Counted from the first letter of the stretch, positions 46,297 to 53,233 are shown. The stretch: DNA of 64,000 nucleotides from Sulfobacillus sp. (GCA_027344105.1 DAHWJO010000001.1:10939-74938), one strand, 5' to 3'. Notes: generated from the sequence alone by a model not told the origin. Numbers and translations: made by a program.

Positions 46297-46725
46297 TCAA
46301 AGGAACTCTCTTTGGTGATCGAGCAGGTGGTCGATTTTGGTATGGCCGTAGTAGTCGAGCCACGAAGGAAAAGGGGCATGGCAGTCGGGGCACGTGCGAA
46401 ACGCCCGGGCCGGAAACAGCTTGTGCGCCTGAGCCTCGTCATCGGGAGTGGCCAGAGCCCCGTTGATGCCAATGGTGAGCAGGGCCAAAGCCCGCTGGTA
46501 GAGGAGCGGTCCGTAGCCCCTGTGGTCAGTGACAAACAGCTCCCAGTAAACCACCGCGCCGTCTGACACCCGGTAGAATGGATAAAGGGTCGGAACGCGG
46601 GGGACCGTCCAACTCACGTCAAGATGGTGATGGACCATCTCCGCCAAGCTGGGGCTGCTCAAAGAGGCCTCGACAAGAGTATTGACGAGTTTGCGCAGTG
46701 AATAGGTTGCCAACATTTTTCTCAT
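46297..46725 (-). CDS. Hypothetical protein with C-terminal classical C2H2 zinc finger
   Basis: Start ATG 46725 after SD AGAGGA; CPDC-HAP-F-PSWLD-Y-YG-H-TKID-H. Confidence 0.75.
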   Translation of the reverse strand: MRKMLATYSLRKLVNTLVEASLSSPSLAEMVHHHLDVSWTVPRVPTLYPFYRVSDGAVVYWELFVTDHRGYGPLLYQRALALLTIGINGALATPDDEAQAHKLFPARAFRTCPDCHAPFPSWLDYYGHTKIDHLLDHQREFL

Positions 46726-47003
46726 GGCCGTTCCTCTCTTTCTTTGGGAGTGCGGCGTTGCCGCAACAAGGACAGGGCAATTCGCCGGGGAGCGCATTTT
46801 CCACCAATATACGAAACGATGGGCTGCCTGATGATCACCCCCCTCTTTTTACCAATGAGCAAGATGCCACCGATTAGAAGCCGTGAAGGCCGGTTCCCAC
46901 CCATTGCTGCGGAGAACCCCGTCGCACTGTCTTGCGGGCGCGCCATATAATAGTGGCAGAACAGCATGGAGAAGGCAGTACATTGCAATGGGGGGGAGCG
47001 CTG

Positions 47004-47627
47004 ATGACATCCCGGCAAGCTTTAGTGAAGAGCGCCCAGCGCTGGGAGACCGCTTCGGCGATCTGGATGGTGCTGGAGGCGGCAGGCGCTCTCACCGCGG
47101 GTTGGCGGTCCCATTCGGTGGCGCTGGGAGGATTTGGGGCTGACAGCTTGATTGAGCTGCTGTCAGCCGGGGTTCTTCTTTGGCGTCTGCACCGGGAACT
47201 GGTTGCGCCCGACTCTGAAGACGCTGGGCGAGTTGAGCGCCAGGCGGCGCGGGTTTCTCTTTTTCTGCTGACTATTCTGGCCGCCGTTCTGGTGATATCC
47301 GCCGCCGCAGCCTTTTGGCGTCATATCCCGGAGAGTCCCTCCCCGCTCGGTCTGATGATCACCGCCGTGTCGAGCGTGCTCATGATCGTGTTTGCCCGCG
47401 CGAAGCGGCGCTTGGGCATTGCGCTGGGGAGCCAGGCACTGCAGGCGGACGCGGTGGAAGGCTGGGTCTGCGCCTACATGGCCTGGGCTGCATTGGGCGG
47501 TACGGCTGCGGTCATGCTGTTTCACTGGGGTTGGGCAGATTCCTTGGCCGCGCTGCTCATTGCCTATTGGGTAGGCAAAGAAGTGTGGGAGATCCGCGAA
47601 GAGCTTGAAGAAAAAAAGCCAGAGTGA
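47004..47627 (+). CDS. CDF-family cation efflux protein lacking the C-terminal domain (TMEM163-like)
   Basis: GFGADSLIELLSA and LQADAVEGWVC metal-site helices, WGWAD; about 6 TM. Confidence 0.8.
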   Translation: MTSRQALVKSAQRWETASAIWMVLEAAGALTAGWRSHSVALGGFGADSLIELLSAGVLLWRLHRELVAPDSEDAGRVERQAARVSLFLLTILAAVLVISAAAAFWRHIPESPSPLGLMITAVSSVLMIVFARAKRRLGIALGSQALQADAVEGWVCAYMAWAALGGTAAVMLFHWGWADSLAALLIAYWVGKEVWEIREELEEKKPE

Positions 47628-47650
47628 GCCGTCCGGGCCGCCTGCTGGTG

Positions 47651-48346
47651 TCAGGAAGTGGGCCCGGACACTCCGGTCCCCCGTGTGGCGATATCTTGGA
47701 TTCTGGCCAGACTTTGCTTCCAGTTGACTTCAATGCACCGGACTGCTTCAGCCGCGTCGCGGCGGCGCAGGGCTTCTAGAATCGCATCATGTTCGGCTAA
47801 AGACTCACGCGATGACCACATCTCGTGGTAATAGGCGATTTCCACGCGGGACAGAGACGTCTTGAGTTGCCTCAAGGTCGCGCTAAGTTCAGGATTGCCC
47901 GCCTTATCAATGAACACGCGGTGAAAGAGGTCATCCGCTGAAGCGGCCAGGACGGCGTCGCGATCTTGAATAGCCTGGCTCAGCTGCTGATTGTATTGCT
48001 CCATTTGGGAGAAATCTTGGGAACTCCAGTCATCCAGAGAATTGACTGTGATGGAATAACTTTCCAACGTCCATATGATCGGGTAGCGGCGCATGACGCC
48101 TTCGATGTCGAGGGGAGCCACCTGGGTCCAGCGATTGGCTTTTGTGACGACCAGGCCTTCGGTTTCCAGGCGGAGCAGGGATTCCCGCACGGGAGTGCGG
48201 CTGACGCCGAACTCCTGGGCCAGTTCCTGATCGCGCAGAAATGTGCCCGGAGCCAAGTGGCCTTCAATGATCCACTGGCGCAGGCGCTGGTATACGGAAT
48301 CATTGACAAAACGGCGCCCAATAGGGCCGTCGTGGCGTGCGGTCAT
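47651..48346 (-). CDS. GntR-family regulator (FCD domain)
   Basis: LAQEFGVSRTPVRESL, D..FH, EHDAIL. Confidence 0.95.
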   Translation of the reverse strand: MTARHDGPIGRRFVNDSVYQRLRQWIIEGHLAPGTFLRDQELAQEFGVSRTPVRESLLRLETEGLVVTKANRWTQVAPLDIEGVMRRYPIIWTLESYSITVNSLDDWSSQDFSQMEQYNQQLSQAIQDRDAVLAASADDLFHRVFIDKAGNPELSATLRQLKTSLSRVEIAYYHEMWSSRESLAEHDAILEALRRRDAAEAVRCIEVNWKQSLARIQDIATRGTGVSGPTS

Positions 48347-48377
48347 TGCTCGGAGCCTCCCCGGTAGTTCAATGTGT

Positions 48378-48388
48378 TATACCGTATA
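48378..48388. promoter_or_regulatory. Candidate GntR operator
   Basis: Palindrome TATAC-C-GTATA 32 bp upstream of gntR. Confidence 0.45.
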
Positions 48389-48521
48389 TCACCTGTCCCG
48401 TGCCAGTCAAGACGGGCACAACCCGGTAATGGGCAGGGCCTGAACTGGGAGGGGGCCGGAGGGAGTTTCATGTCCTGCCTAACTGAAATTCCCCCGCATC
48501 CCCAATTTCCGGTCTTGCTGT

Positions 48522-49418
48522 TTAGGGCAGATCTTCCGCAATCTCGCCATAGGTGTCTGTGCGCCTGTCCCGGTAAAACTGCCAGTGCTCGCGCGCCTGC
48601 CGTATTTGCGACAGGTCCAGATCTGCTGTCACCAATGCATCGTGATTGCGCGGACCCTGCGCTACCGTCCGGCCCTCAGGGTCGCAGAAATAGCTCTCGC
48701 CGAAAAATTCGCCAATATTCCAGGGAGATTCCTCCCCGACGCGATTCAAAGCGCCCACAAAATAGCCATTAGCGATGGCGTGCGCCGCTTGTTCGATATG
48801 CCAGAGATGGTCGGCATGGCCAGCGGTAGTGGCGGAAGGGTTAAAGACGATCTCGGCGCCGTGCAATCCCAAAATGCGGGCGCCTTCCGGAAAGTGGCGG
48901 TCATAGCAGATATAGACACCGATTTTTCCCCACTGCGTGTCAAAAACCGGGTAGCCTAAATTGCCGGGCCGAAAGTAGAATTTTTCCCAAAATCCGTAGG
49001 CCCCTGGAGCGCTGCCGTGAACCTGAGGAATGTGGATCTTTCGGAACTTGCCCAGGTAGGTGCCGTCGGCGTCGATAACGGCTGCGGTATTGTAATAGAC
49101 CCCGGCCATGGCTTCCTCATACAGGGGAACGATCAGCACCATGCGGTAGTTTTTGGCCAGAGTCTTCATCAAAGTCACGGTGGGGCCATCTGGCACGGCT
49201 TCAGCCGCTTGGTACCACCGCCTGTCCTGTTCGGCCGCAAAGTAAGGGGCAAAGAACAGCTCCTGCAGGCATAAGACATTGACAGACTGAGCGGCGGCTT
49301 TCTTTATCCACTCTACGTGTTTTTCAATGGCAGCCTCCTTATGGACTGCGATATCCAGCTCTCCAGGCAATTCGTGATGCAACTGCAAGAGCCCTGCGCG
49401 CACTATCATCTGTTGCAC
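48522..49418 (-). CDS. Nitrilase-superfamily hydrolase, beta-ureidopropionase-like
   Basis: Glu-Lys-Cys triad (LQELF, RKIHIP, ICYDRHFPE); FWEKFYFRPGN, FYRDRR. Confidence 0.9.
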   Translation of the reverse strand: MQQMIVRAGLLQLHHELPGELDIAVHKEAAIEKHVEWIKKAAAQSVNVLCLQELFFAPYFAAEQDRRWYQAAEAVPDGPTVTLMKTLAKNYRMVLIVPLYEEAMAGVYYNTAAVIDADGTYLGKFRKIHIPQVHGSAPGAYGFWEKFYFRPGNLGYPVFDTQWGKIGVYICYDRHFPEGARILGLHGAEIVFNPSATTAGHADHLWHIEQAAHAIANGYFVGALNRVGEESPWNIGEFFGESYFCDPEGRTVAQGPRNHDALVTADLDLSQIRQAREHWQFYRDRRTDTYGEIAEDLP

Positions 49419-49424
49419 TCCTCC

Positions 49425-49463
49425 ATTGATTTCGTATAGTATGTAGTATATTATACGATCAAT
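49425..49463. promoter_or_regulatory. Inverted repeat in the divergent promoter region
   Basis: TCGTATA-N13-TATACGA flanked by ATTGA/TCAAT. Confidence 0.5.
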
Positions 49464-49496
49464 CTCACTTAATCAAGGTCGAGGCAAAGGAGTCGG

Positions 49497-50717
49497 GTGC
49501 ATATGGCCAACACGGTGGAATGGATAGAGAACGTCCAGGCAGACTATCAGGATGTGCCGCTACTGGCGCATCTCACCCCTGCCATTGCGGAAGAAATCTT
49601 GGCTTACCACCGCACGTGGCCGGAATACCGGGAAACGCCGATGCATAGCCTGCCGCATCTGGCGGCTTATGCGGGGGTACGCAGCATTTATGTCAAAGAC
49701 GAAGCCAAGCGGTTTGGGATTCACTCATTTAAGATACTGGGTGGCACTTGGGCCGTTGCCCGCGCCTTGGCTGAACGCTGGCGTTTAGAAAGCCCTGTGA
49801 GCGCAAGCTCCCTAAAAGCCGCTGCGTCGTGGGCGCCTTGCGTGACCCTGGCGGCGGCCAGTGACGGAAATCACGGCATGGGAGTGGCGTGGACAGCCCG
49901 GGAACTCGGTCAGCGGGCGGTGATCTTTTTGCCTGCTGGCACCCGTTCGTCCCGTGTCGAGCGAATTGCTGCGCTGGGTGCCGAAGTGCATGTGACCGAC
50001 ATGAACTATGACGACACCGTGCAGCATGTGGCCCAGCAAGCCGCTGAGCACGGCTGGCTGCTGATCCAAGACACCTCGTGGCCAGGCTATGAGCAGATAC
50101 CCCGGTGGGTGACTCAAGGATACCTGAGCATGGCTCTGGAAGCTTTCCAGCAGTTGGGTGCCCAGGGGATGGAACCTCCCACGCACGTGATTTTGCAGGC
50201 AGGAGTGGGTTCCCTGGCCGCTGCCGTCACGGGGTTTTACGCGAATCGCTATGGGGCTGCCAACTGCCCCACCATTCTCATCGCCGAGCCAACCCTGGCG
50301 CCGGCGCTGTTGGAGTCGGCCCGCAGGTCAGATGGCCAGCTGGCAAAAATCGGGGGCCCGATGGAAACAGTGATGGCCGGGCTGGCCTGTGGGGAGCCTA
50401 ATCCCTTGGCGTGGCCGCTGCTGCGATCATGGGCCGGTTTCTTTGTGGCGTGCTCCGATTCTGTTGCCGCGCGCGGGACCCGCATTCTCTCCAATCCCCT
50501 TGGGGAGGATCCCAGAATTTTGGCCGGAGAGTCTGGAAGCATGCCGCTGGGCCTCTTGGTGTCGCTCATGGATGACCCGCGCTTCCATAAAGCCCGCGAG
50601 GCTTTTCGCCTGACATCCCAGTCGCGAATTCTCCTCTTCAATACCGAAGGCATCCCGGATCCCGGGCTGTTCTTGGATATTGTCTGGAACGGGGACTATT
50701 GCGCTGAACCAAAATAG
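49497..50717 (+). CDS. dpaL: Diaminopropionate ammonia-lyase (PLP)
   Basis: KDEA.RFG..SFKILGG, ASDGNHG, QDTSW.GY, QAGVGS, MAGLACGEP, GESG. Confidence 0.92.
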   Translation: MHMANTVEWIENVQADYQDVPLLAHLTPAIAEEILAYHRTWPEYRETPMHSLPHLAAYAGVRSIYVKDEAKRFGIHSFKILGGTWAVARALAERWRLESPVSASSLKAAASWAPCVTLAAASDGNHGMGVAWTARELGQRAVIFLPAGTRSSRVERIAALGAEVHVTDMNYDDTVQHVAQQAAEHGWLLIQDTSWPGYEQIPRWVTQGYLSMALEAFQQLGAQGMEPPTHVILQAGVGSLAAAVTGFYANRYGAANCPTILIAEPTLAPALLESARRSDGQLAKIGGPMETVMAGLACGEPNPLAWPLLRSWAGFFVACSDSVAARGTRILSNPLGEDPRILAGESGSMPLGLLVSLMDDPRFHKAREAFRLTSQSRILLFNTEGIPDPGLFLDIVWNGDYCAEPK

Positions 50718-50887
50718 CCGGGCCGCAGAAGTGCCAGAGTCTAAGATTAGGCTGCGGGCGCGACTGATGAACTGGCACTTGGCCCCGTACGGCCGGATGG
50801 AGCCAAGAGGCTGACGGGATGTTCGGGGCCGGAATCGGGCCAGGGAATTCCAGCCACCGCGGAGTGTCTGCGACAGGTGATCTGTCC

Positions 50888-50916
50888 TTGACATTAGACC
50901 AGCGAGCCCGTAAAAT
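50888..50916 (+). promoter_or_regulatory. sigma-A promoter of rplM-rpsI
   Basis: TTGACA-17bp-TAAAAT. Confidence 0.85.
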
Positions 50917-50972
50917 ACTAATGTTCGGTTGTCGGCAGTGTCGCCGGCACACAGAGGTAGGAGGTAAATTTC

Positions 50973-51407
50973 ATGTCCACTTATATGGCCCGGTCTCAAG
51001 ACGTTGATCGCAACTGGTATGTGATTGACGCCGCCGGATTGCCGCTGGGTCGTGTTGCTACTGTTGCAGCAACATTGCTTCGCGGAAAGCATAAACCCAC
51101 ATATACCCCTCATGTTGATACAGGTGATTATGTGATCATTGTCAACGCTTCAACAGTACTATTGACTGGCCGCAAGCTGGATCAAAAAATTTATTTTCAT
51201 CATTCCGGGTACTTGGGCGGATTGAAGCGGACTGTCTACCGCCAGTTAATGCAAAAGAAACCCGCTTTCGTTATGGAAAAAGCCGTGCGCGGAATGCTTC
51301 CGCATAACCGTCTCGGTCGGGCGATGTACAAGAAGCTCAAAGTGTACGCACAGGGAGAACATCCTCACAGCGCACAGCAGCCGCAAGTATGGGAGGTTAA
51401 AATTTAA
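50973..51407 (+). CDS. rplM: 50S ribosomal protein L13
   Basis: [21 protein letters not shown]. Confidence 0.99.
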
Positions 51408-51799
51408 TGGCAGTTGCGCAATTCTGGGGAACAGGACGCCGCAAGAATGCCGTTGCGCGTGTTCGCTTGGTGCCAGGCACCGGCAGGGTTTTAATTAATG
51501 GGCGGGCGATGGAGGACTATTTTCCGCTTTTGACATTGCAAAAAGGGATAATGGCTCCTCTTAATTCGGTAGAGCTGGTAGGGCGGTTTGATGTCCTCGT
51601 GCGGGTTGAGGGTGGCGGGGTGTCGGGACAGGCTGGCGCGGTGCGTCACGGGATTGCGCGCGCTCTTCTGTTGGTCGATACGAATTTACGTGTATCTTTG
51701 AAGCAGCGGGGATTCTTAACACGGGACCCGCGTATGAAGGAACGGCGGAAATATGGATTGAAGAAGGCACGGAAAGCTCCGCAATTCTCAAAACGCTAA
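51407..51799 (+). CDS. rpsI: 30S ribosomal protein S9
   Basis: [18 protein letters not shown]. Confidence 0.99.
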
Positions 51800-51904: not shown

Positions 51905-53233
51905 TCAGCTGATGCCGACGCCAACCAGTTCGGGCGCCGAAATGACAGGAAGGCGGGGAGTGAATTTCCGCGGTTCCGACGCGTCATTGCCGGCATCGCT
52001 CAAATGTGCCCATAAATGCGTGAGCGCATGGGCATCGCCTAATTGGCTCTGCACAATATAATATTCACATTGCAGGTCGCGCTGCCCGCTGGACGGGGCT
52101 ATGGCCAAGGCGCGGCTTAAATAATCTTTAGCCAGTGCGAAATCCTCTACCGCCACTGCCCGGCGGGCGAGAACCCTCAAAGCAAAGATTTTTGTGTCCT
52201 GCCAGGGCCAACTGTCCGGGGCGTTCAGCACGCGCGTGGCATAGCGGTCCAGAACAATTTCAGAGTCAGCGGTGCGCAGCAGCCCTTCCAAAATCACCGC
52301 CTGCCCTTCTTGAAAATGCACGCGGTCGAATACCGCCAGCGAGGACTCCAGCAACTCCCTGGCTTTCTCGCCACGCCCCAAGTCCGTCAGCACCTGCGCG
52401 ATGTCCGCTTGAAGCGCTGCGCGCTCTTCATTGCCGCGTATCTCCGGCAAAAGGGTCAGGGCTTCCTCAATAGCACCAGCAGCTTCCGGCTGGTGCCCCA
52501 GACGCCATTCGGCCGCGGCAATCCGGGTTAGCAGTTCTGCGCGCCGGGGAGGGCTGATGAGTTTCTGCGGCTCGTCTAAGGCTGTGCGGTACAGTTCCAG
52601 GGATGAGACCCACTGTCTTTGGCTGTAACAGAAGTCGCCGTAATGCTGGGCGGCCTCGGCGCGAATATTCGGCCCCTCGCGCGTCGTCAGCCGCTCCGCA
52701 TATTCTAGAGCCTGCTGAAATGAATTCATGGCTTTGTGAAAAGAGCCGTGGCGCGCCGCGGCCATCCCCAAAGTGTTGGCGATTTCAATGGCTTGCACAG
52801 GATGGTCATCCGGGTGGATGAGCAGGAGACTCTCTTCGAGGTGAGCCAGTGCGGCATCGAGATTGCCCTGCGACATTTCCAGCCTGCCCATCGTCGCTTT
52901 AATGCGGGCGAGAATGTCCTCGCGCCCCGTCCGTTCCGCCAAGGTCAAGGCCTCTTGCAGTCCGAGCATGCCGTCTTCAAGACGTCCGCTGTTCCATAAT
53001 GCCTGGGCGGCTTTCAGCAGCACTTCGATGGTGCGCATATCGTCACCGTTCTCCAAAAAGAATCCCAAGGGTTTGCCCAGGCGACCGGCCATGATATCCA
53101 AGGCTTTGTGGGATGGATGGATACGGCCCAACTCAACTTGACTTACATAACTTTTGGTCAACTCGTCGCCTGCGAGCTGCTCTTGAGTTAACCCCAGCTT
53201 CTTTCTCAGGTCACGGATCTTTGTACCCACCAT
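51905..53233 (-). CDS. XRE HTH + TPR regulator (RRNPP-like architecture)
   Basis: KIRDLRKKLGLTQEQLA...SYVSQVELG N-terminus followed by TPR-like helical repeats. Confidence 0.9.
   Translation of the reverse strand: MVGTKIRDLRKKLGLTQEQLAGDELTKSYVSQVELGRIHPSHKALDIMAGRLGKPLGFFLENGDDMRTIEVLLKAAQALWNSGRLEDGMLGLQEALTLAERTGREDILARIKATMGRLEMSQGNLDAALAHLEESLLLIHPDDHPVQAIEIANTLGMAAARHGSFHKAMNSFQQALEYAERLTTREGPNIRAEAAQHYGDFCYSQRQWVSSLELYRTALDEPQKLISPPRRAELLTRIAAAEWRLGHQPEAAGAIEEALTLLPEIRGNEERAALQADIAQVLTDLGRGEKARELLESSLAVFDRVHFQEGQAVILEGLLRTADSEIVLDRYATRVLNAPDSWPWQDTKIFALRVLARRAVAVEDFALAKDYLSRALAIAPSSGQRDLQCEYYIVQSQLGDAHALTHLWAHLSDAGNDASEPRKFTPRLPVISAPELVGVGIS

Follow-up and report, generated by a model that had tools for sequence, protein, structure and literature searches.

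The three genes at positions 47651-50717 of a 64,000-nucleotide stretch of Sulfobacillus sp. DNA (GCA_027344105.1 DAHWJO010000001.1:10939-74938; the whole stretch is referred to below as the window) encode a GntR-type regulator, a nitrilase-superfamily hydrolase and a diaminopropionate ammonia-lyase (DAPAL), and are proposed to form a regulated two-enzyme catabolic module. The hydrolase would be a neofunctionalized offshoot of PydC, the bacterial nitrilase-type beta-ureidopropionase, and would hydrolyze a mono-ureido derivative of 2,3-diaminopropionate (DAP), releasing its carbamoyl group as CO2 and NH3. Its most likely substrate would be 2-amino-3-ureidopropionate (albizziin), the 2-amino analogue of the usual beta-ureidopropionase substrates, 3-ureidopropionate and 3-ureidoisobutyrate. 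The divergently encoded DAPAL would convert DAP to pyruvate and 2 NH3, for a net yield of pyruvate, CO2 and 3 NH3 per albizziin. It is considered likely that the hydrolase makes DAP from some ureido derivative of DAP; the complete route from albizziin through DAP to pyruvate is, on the comparisons of sequence and gene order given below, somewhat less certain and regarded as probable. These comparisons establish what the genes encode, that they stay linked, that the hydrolases form a clade of their own and that their loop has changed; the substrate, and the targets and effector of the regulator, are inferred.

Features of the locus

The host is a Sulfobacillus from mine-drainage metagenomes. 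An earlier annotation of the window made without database searches (the sequence-only reading) described a nitrilase of the beta-ureidopropionase type divergent from DAPAL, with a GntR gene downstream of the hydrolase; the three open reading frames (ORFs) are present with the coordinates that it assigned to them, and the Pfam and PDB matches agree with this description. The regulator gene (47651-48346, minus strand, 231 amino acids, Pfam GntR and FCD domains) lies 175 bp downstream of the hydrolase gene (48522-49409, minus strand). The hydrolase has 295 amino acids when read from the ATG at 49409, or 298 amino acids (48522-49418) from a GTG at 49418. The ATG is the likely start, because a GGAGGAG ribosome-binding site precedes it by 8 nt; the resulting 295 amino acids equal the length of database protein P0001, which is 100% identical to the window hydrolase. 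The lyase gene (49503-50717, plus strand) encodes 404 amino acids from the ATG at 49503 or 406 amino acids (49497-50717) from a GTG at 49497; here too the ATG is the likely start, because of an AAGGAG ribosome-binding site at 49487-49492, 10 nt before it. Hydrolase and lyase are transcribed divergently from a spacer of 78-93 bp, depending on the start codons chosen.

The lyase is a DAPAL (EC 4.3.1.15), scoring 464 bits with model NF006058 (cut-off 276) and 423 bits with TIGR01747 (cut-off 274); its 447 bits with the narrower model TIGR03528 stay short of the cut-off of 532. It matches Escherichia coli YgeX (PDB 4D9G) at 2.6e-106 with 44% identity, and its residues K79, D123 and D192 correspond to K77, D120 and D189 of YgeX, the pyridoxal phosphate (PLP) lysine and two catalytic aspartates. 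The window lyase is a member of the YgeX/DpaL family of E. coli and Salmonella; those enzymes are paired with ygeW-ygeY-hyuA under the sigma-54 regulator YgeV, whereas the window lyase is accompanied by a nitrilase and a GntR regulator.

The hydrolase belongs to the nitrilase superfamily (CN_hydrolase, PF00795, 6.6e-60, 203 bits against a cut-off of 23.2), and the catalytic residues E53, K127, E145 and C171 are present and invariant or nearly so in the family alignment. Its closest relatives in the PDB are enzymes of proven beta-ureidopropionase activity, those of Drosophila (2VHH, 4e-56) and human (6FTQ/8PT4, 6e-53); weaker matches are N-carbamoylputrescine amidase (3e-48) and N-carbamoyl-D-amino-acid hydrolases (about 4e-31). 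Fold and Glu-Lys-Glu-Cys residues are those of PydC and human UPB1 (EC 3.5.1.6), and the chemistry proposed here, from a beta-ureido group to an amine, CO2 and NH3, would be the same. The bacterial enzymes of Pyd clusters are 58-66% identical to the window hydrolase, which lacks the N-terminal extension of about 70 residues found in the animal beta-ureidopropionases. It differs from PydC in having no dihydropyrimidinase or PreA/PreT neighbors, in being linked to DAPAL instead, and in belonging to a separate clade.

Other assignments were considered. The proteins of this clade are annotated in databases as "acyltransferase", "N-carbamoylputrescine amidase" or "beta-ureidopropionase". The best NCBIfam model is AguB (TIGR03381), and N-carbamoylputrescine amidase was rejected on its score of 233.5 bits against a cut-off of 410.25 and on the missing tail-amine glutamate, G200 standing in the place of Glu187. 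D-Carbamoylase was rejected on a match far weaker than that to the beta-ureidopropionases.

Conserved linkage in relatives

The hydrolase, DAPAL and GntR genes are linked in eight further loci (L001-L007 and L009) of seven other genomes, namely Sulfobacillus sp., S. thermotolerans Kr1, S. benefaciens and four Bacillota metagenome-assembled genomes (MAGs). A survey of nitrilase-dpaL neighborhoods, which the sequence-only reading had suggested, finds the pairing conserved in 9 loci of 8 genomes. Hydrolase identity is 73-98% over the eight related loci; DAPAL identity falls to 45-56% among them, and a GntR orthologue, present in all eight at 44-96% identity, falls to 44-55%. In the window, L001 and L002 the hydrolase gene itself is divergent from the lyase gene, while in L003-L009 the GntR gene lies between them at the head of a GntR-hydrolase operon from which DAPAL diverges. 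Because the linkage of the trio survives both rearrangement and deep divergence, a shared function is indicated, and on these comparisons the arrangement is judged to be more than chance. At five of the nine loci, that of the window among them, no hydrolase other than the nitrilase adjoins DAPAL; the enzyme should accordingly form DAP itself, and 2,3-diureidopropionate is ruled out as its only substrate.

Two paralogous modules of DAPAL and GntR-hydrolase-Amidohydro_3 (L003 and L004) occur in one genome, MAG TL1-4.bin73; the L004 copy is accompanied by a YgeY-like M20 enzyme, an NCS1 permease and a hydantoinase, and the L003 copy by an amino-acid permease, a distant hydantoinase homologue, a carbamoylase-type M20 enzyme, an IclR regulator and an MmgE/PrpD protein. 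In loci of the S. benefaciens type (L005, 11045-12856; L007, 11029-12828; L009, 11023-12822) the hydrolase gene is immediately followed by one that encodes a PDZ-domain M61 glycyl aminopeptidase.

Relation to the reductive urate pathway

The reductive urate pathway begins with the conversion of urate to 2,8-dioxopurine by XdhD or XdhAC, after which the ring is reduced by YgfK or UacX; SsnA opens the ring to give ureidomethylhydantoin, from which HyuA forms 2,3-diureidopropionate. YgeW or UacY takes off the first ureido group of this compound, the M20 peptidase YgeY removes the second to give DAP, and YgeX converts DAP to pyruvate (PMC12507026; bioRxiv 10.1101/2025.04.24.650524; PMC12990295). 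The pathway was worked out only in 2025, and both the order of ureido cleavage and the intermediacy of albizziin are disputed: two orders have been published, and in that of Liu et al. the last intermediate is 3-amino-2-ureidopropionate and not albizziin (PMC12990295).

The sequence-only reading had taken the hydrolase for a hydrolytic stand-in for YgeW, on the premise that YgeW converts albizziin to DAP. That premise is found in neither published version of the pathway, in which YgeY makes DAP (PMC12507026; bioRxiv 10.1101/2025.04.24.650524; PMC12990295); the nitrilase is therefore the counterpart of YgeY and not of YgeW. The wider proposal of a hydrolytic route from a ureido-amino acid to DAP that feeds DAPAL gains strong support from the linkage, from the monophyly and loop of the hydrolases and from the neighbors of its relatives. 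The pathway had also been put forward as one not known to be described, which agrees with full-text literature searches that link no nitrilase or beta-ureidopropionase with albizziin or DAP. A nitrilase variant is not mentioned in either reductive urate pathway paper, and such a variant of the last reductive urate steps is apparently undescribed.

Within the lower reductive urate (2,8-dioxopurine) pathway, the hydrolase would take the place of YgeY. The proposed role is the same, removal of the last ureido group to release DAP for YgeX, as is the place in the neighborhood, beside DAPAL and a UacY-type Amidohydro_3 protein, but the folds are unrelated, YgeY being an M20 metallopeptidase with a metal mechanism and the window hydrolase a nitrilase with a cysteine mechanism. 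A reverse survey of 79 other DAPAL loci (41-48% identity) found a nitrilase in a single one, which repeats L006, and a YgeY-like M20 enzyme in 31; DAPAL, YgeY-like M20 and Amidohydro_3 occur together in 20 of the 79, sometimes with HyuA and SsnA. Judged by this gene content, the usual set is DAPAL, M20 and Amidohydro_3, and the Sulfobacillia set is DAPAL and nitrilase, with or without Amidohydro_3. The nitrilase thus appears to fill the slot held elsewhere by M20, the pattern expected for non-orthologous displacement of YgeY.

Among the markers of a reductive urate cluster (SsnA with XdhD/XdhAC, YgfK/UacX, HyuA, YgeW/UacY, YgeY and YgeX), the window holds a YgeX homologue only. The locus works like the end of the pathway and not like a full cluster, and the window organism would keep only the terminal two steps here. 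A tblastn search of the 64-kb window with the cluster proteins of L018 and L015 returned unrelated ABC ATPases only. Hydantoinase homologues elsewhere in Sulfobacillus genomes were found at the known loci only, in a scan that finds very close relatives only and gives no evidence of absence. The substrate would come either from upstream genes elsewhere in the genome or from an intermediate that is taken up.

The module is larger in relatives, which add genes for a UacY-like D-aminoacylase homologue, for a hydantoinase homologue and for transporters (ECF, NCS1 or amino-acid permease). The Amidohydro_3 gene immediately follows the hydrolase gene in L002, L003, L004 and L018; the L006/L015 cluster has it at a greater downstream distance. 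The best PDB relatives of its product are the D-aminoacylases 1M7J and 3GIP/3GIQ (1e-61), the same homology that is reported for UacY of C. difficile (PMC12507026), and it is 33-39% identical to the Amidohydro_3 proteins of Clostridia DAPAL-YgeY-HyuA-SsnA clusters. This UacY/YgeW-type enzyme, whose gene is absent from the window, co-occurs with the nitrilase in relatives and is not replaced by it. Both L004 and L006/L015 add a hydantoinase (HyuA-like) homologue and an importer (NCS1 or ECF).

The module is further extended by SsnA-like and XdhD-like genes in Hydrogenisulfobacillus and in a Polyangia MAG. The hydrolase of Hydrogenisulfobacillus filiaventi (L018) is 79% identical to that of the window and is encoded between SsnA-like and hydantoinase-like genes, in a cluster with a protein scoring above the cut-off for selenium-dependent xanthine dehydrogenase, XdhC, deaminases, an NCS1 permease and a UacY-like gene. 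No YgfK/UacX homologue was found in this cluster, which could represent yet another version of the reductive urate route. Xdh-like molybdoenzymes of the region (L018 1-18675; LR778114.1, 412742-433629) number two, the selenium-type protein being one of them; a FAD_binding_4 protein is encoded as well, and the deaminases are an 8-oxoguanine-deaminase-like amidohydrolase and an adenine deaminase. The Polyangia MAG (L079 1-15100; DATNAQ010000135.1) has a hydrolase 60% identical to that of the window, with T198 and H201 kept but E203 at the third position; an Amidohydro_3 gene flanks it, and SsnA (37% identical to E. coli SsnA) and XdhD-like genes are nearby. As far as gene neighborhood can tell, this is an independent link of the hydrolase type to urate-pathway markers outside Bacillota, and the neighbor genes of the relatives together correspond to the lower half of the reductive urate pathway.

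The dispute over cleavage order bears on the choice of substrate. The hydrolase might cleave another ureido-DAP species, either the 2-ureido group of 3-amino-2-ureidopropionate or, if a different enzyme completed the removal, the 3-ureido group of 2,3-diureidopropionate, and the module would still end in DAP and DAPAL. Such a specificity would suit the existence of two published orders (PMC12990295; bioRxiv 10.1101/2025.04.24.650524) and the presence in the nitrilase superfamily of N-carbamoyl-D-alpha-amino-acid hydrolases (about 4e-31 to the window protein); Amidohydro_3 and M20 partners moreover coexist in relatives, so that gene content leaves the order of action unfixed. The window protein is nevertheless far closer to beta-ureidopropionases (4e-56) than to these D-carbamoylases and branches inside the diversity of PydC, which cleaves beta-ureido groups, and the loci in which it is the sole hydrolase beside DAPAL point the same way; cleavage of another ureido-DAP species is held to be rather unlikely.

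Ancestry of the hydrolase and its substrate-tail loop

A profile scan covered 185,579 species-representative genomes, and the 80 closest other family members (58-65% identity) served as outgroup. No DAPAL gene was found within 10 kb of any of these 80 hydrolases, nearly all of which adjoin dihydropyrimidinase, PreA/PreT, NCS1 permease or beta-alanine aminotransferase genes; by this context they are taken to be canonical bacterial nitrilase-type beta-ureidopropionases (PydC). A neighbor-joining tree groups the hydrolases from the 11 loci with DAPAL or purine-type linkage as one clade, with support from 49 of 50 bootstraps, and places the PydC of Bacillales/Alicyclobacillus as its sister group. 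From its position in the tree the window enzyme is therefore an offshoot of PydC outside the pyrimidine context.

The 11 members of the clade were compared column by column with 81 Pyd-linked homologues, and the sharpest differences between clade and PydC lie directly after the NPSAT strand. T198, H201 and D203 are present in all 11 clade members, at positions where PydC has V (81/81), L (80/81) and E (78/81). The clade thus reads NPSAT-T-x-G-H-x-D, and the window enzyme NPSAT-T-A-G-H-A-D (T198-A-G-H201-A-D203), against NPSAT-V-A-G-L-S-E in PydC; the window hydrolase departs from the general PydC pattern NPSAT-[VI]-x-x-L-S-E, and human and fly beta-ureidopropionases have I-G-x-L-S-E at the loop positions. 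In liganded structures of the N-carbamoylputrescine amidase of Medicago, the substrate amine that takes no part in the reaction is bound by Glu187 of this loop, the residue that sets specificity (PMC4812014). Glu187 of the amidase aligns with G200 of the window hydrolase, next to H201. Polar residues thus stand in for two hydrophobic ones exactly at the point that reads the far end of the substrate. Beta-ureidopropionase (EC 3.5.1.6) accepts the C2-methyl substrate 3-ureidoisobutyrate, which derives from thymine. A pocket retuned for a 2-amino group would be a chemically modest step from a C2-methyl to a C2-amino substrate.

The hydrolase could also be an ordinary pyrimidine beta-ureidopropionase, its adjacency to DAPAL reflecting shared nitrogen-scavenging regulation or lineage-specific synteny. 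An identity of 58-66% to the PydC of true Pyd clusters, the same catalytic residues and the same CYDRHFPE motif would be expected of such an enzyme, and DAPAL and GntR genes also exist without a nitrilase (L189, see below). Pyd genes, however, are absent from the window and from the 10 kb around each of the nine DAPAL-linked loci, whereas they flank nearly all of the 80 outgroup members. The linkage has outlasted rearrangement and deep divergence, the substrate-tail loop is altered in every clade member, and some relatives lie in clusters of the SsnA/Xdh/UacY type. Canonical PydC is judged an unlikely identity on gene context, phylogeny and loop motif, and an explanation of the locus by regulation or synteny alone is considered quite improbable.

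Extended clusters and weighing of the proposal

A second lineage of T-x-G-H-x-D hydrolases has a fixed gene architecture (L020 1-10411, L183 1-6268, L184 1-8897), in which an ECF transporter (S component, CbiQ and two ATPases), a hydantoinase homologue, a carbamoylase-family M20 enzyme and Amidohydro_3 are divergent from a GntR-hydrolase-PLP enzyme operon. In a Rhizobiaceae MAG (L008 2727-4497) two tandem related nitrilases, 57% and 53% identical to the window protein, are encoded beside a carbamoylase-family M20 gene. The extended clusters share the logic of the hydantoinase process, in which a hydantoinase is followed by an N-carbamoyl-D-amino-acid amidohydrolase: in relatives a hydantoinase homologue is likewise joined by a nitrilase-superfamily decarbamoylase. 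The D-carbamoylases (about 4e-31) act on alpha-ureido groups, whereas the module here feeds an ammonia-lyase.

That the extended clusters degrade an imported non-urate 5-substituted hydantoin or other cyclic ureide, with the nitrilase and PLP enzyme processing a beta-substituted alpha-amino acid and the route not based on DAP in every lineage, would account for the dedicated importers (ECF, NCS1 or amino-acid permease) and hydantoinase homologues that accompany the module, for the cysteine-synthase-like PLP enzyme in place of DAPAL in the L020 group, and for the three decarbamoylase types there, which exceed the needs of ureidomethylhydantoin degradation, but it is very unlikely, since the Sulfobacillia partner is a clear DAPAL with all catalytic residues, which fixes DAP as an intermediate, and the SsnA-like and XdhD-like neighbors in L018 and L079 point to purines.

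Several observations weigh against the route from albizziin through DAP. The order of Liu et al., if right, leaves 3-amino-2-ureidopropionate as the last intermediate, which seems a poorer fit for an enzyme of PydC descent. The 64-kb window encodes no homologue of hydantoinase, Amidohydro_3, SsnA or Xdh. The L018 cluster has no DAPAL gene within 10 kb, and a DAPAL of H. filiaventi was not identifiable among the top 120 DAPAL homologues. The PLP enzyme that follows the hydrolase in L020, L183 and L184 is a cysteine-synthase-like protein of 504-519 amino acids and not a DAPAL. The L004 operon encodes an intact YgeY-like M20 enzyme as well, and L003, L020 and L184 encode carbamoylase-family M20 enzymes; because M20 enzymes coexist with the nitrilase, the latter is not a simple one-for-one replacement everywhere. 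Finally, the nitrilase is missing from L189 (5578-7671), where a DAPAL 60% identical to that of the window has a divergent GntR/FCD gene; GntR and DAPAL may have been paired first and the hydrolase recruited afterwards.

The wider proposal is that the T-x-G-H-x-D clade consists of dedicated albizziin amidohydrolases derived from PydC, forming a third, nitrilase-based variant of the lower reductive urate pathway in acidophilic mine-drainage Sulfobacillia and in Polyangia, outside gut anaerobes. It is a tentative one, to which slightly less than even weight is given. If the hydrolase does act in place of YgeY, a second, unrelated family would carry out the DAP-forming step, a clear case of non-orthologous displacement, and parts of the pathway would be extended to aerobic or facultative acidophiles. 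Given the ancestry among beta-ureido hydrolases and the coupling to DAPAL, its specificity would be independent evidence for albizziin, and not 3-amino-2-ureidopropionate, as the last ureido intermediate. In its stand-alone two-gene form the module would let the window organism scavenge intermediates released by its neighbors. Automatic annotations would be corrected, and the three-residue loop signature would separate pyrimidine-type from DAP-type enzymes. Were the hydrolase an ordinary PydC, the finding would shrink to a lineage-specific synteny.

Regulation

The regulator is a FadR-like (FCD) member of the GntR family (47651-48346; PF00392, 1.6e-20, 72.9 bits; PF07729, 3e-18, 66.9 bits). 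Effector-relieved repression is the mechanism expected for an FCD regulator. The protein would probably repress both divergent promoters through an AT-rich palindrome in the spacer until an effector binds, the effector presumably being the substrate or DAP. The presumed operator in the divergent control region is a 39-bp inverted repeat at 49425-49463, ATTGATTTCGTATA-N11-TATACGATCAAT, with the core TCGTATA-N13-TATACGA at 49432-49458; the repeat occurs once in the 64-kb window and overlaps a lyase promoter-like site found in a promoter scan (TTGATT-17-TATTAT, 49426-49454). All eight related loci share its core, TGT(A/G)GTATAT(T/C)A(C/T)A, in the spacer from which DAPAL diverges, a conservation that may partly reflect the -10 region.

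A putative second operator, GTGTTATACCGTATATCAC, is located at 48374-48392 between the hydrolase stop and the GntR start. Within it, upstream of the GntR gene, is a perfect palindrome, TATAC-C-GTATA (48378-48388). The site occurs once in the 64-kb window and is similar to the GTGATATA...ACAC motif that related loci keep in their divergent spacers. Because of its position between these two genes, the regulator may control its own gene through this site. No Rfam match to a riboswitch or leader RNA was found at 46500-51500. RNA evidence of co-expression was sought, and only DNA metagenome runs carry the sequence.

Neighboring genes

Beside the GntR gene lies a cation-diffusion-facilitator (CDF) ORF (46932-47627, plus strand) of only 231 amino acids, which matches the 285-position CDF profile at positions 8-190 only; the C-terminal cytoplasmic domain seems to be lacking, and the protein may be truncated. 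On the other side, DAPAL is followed by a 255-bp spacer (50718-50972) before rplM-rpsI. It contains TTGACA-17-TAAAAT at 50888-50916, a strong promoter-like site, and yielded no match to the Rfam L13 leader. An ORF of 228 amino acids (50427-51113, minus strand) that overlaps this spacer looks spurious. Adjoining rplM-rpsI is a gene for a regulator of 442 amino acids with HTH_3 and TPR domains (51905-53233, minus strand), whose position is conserved in L001 and in S. thermotolerans (L002).

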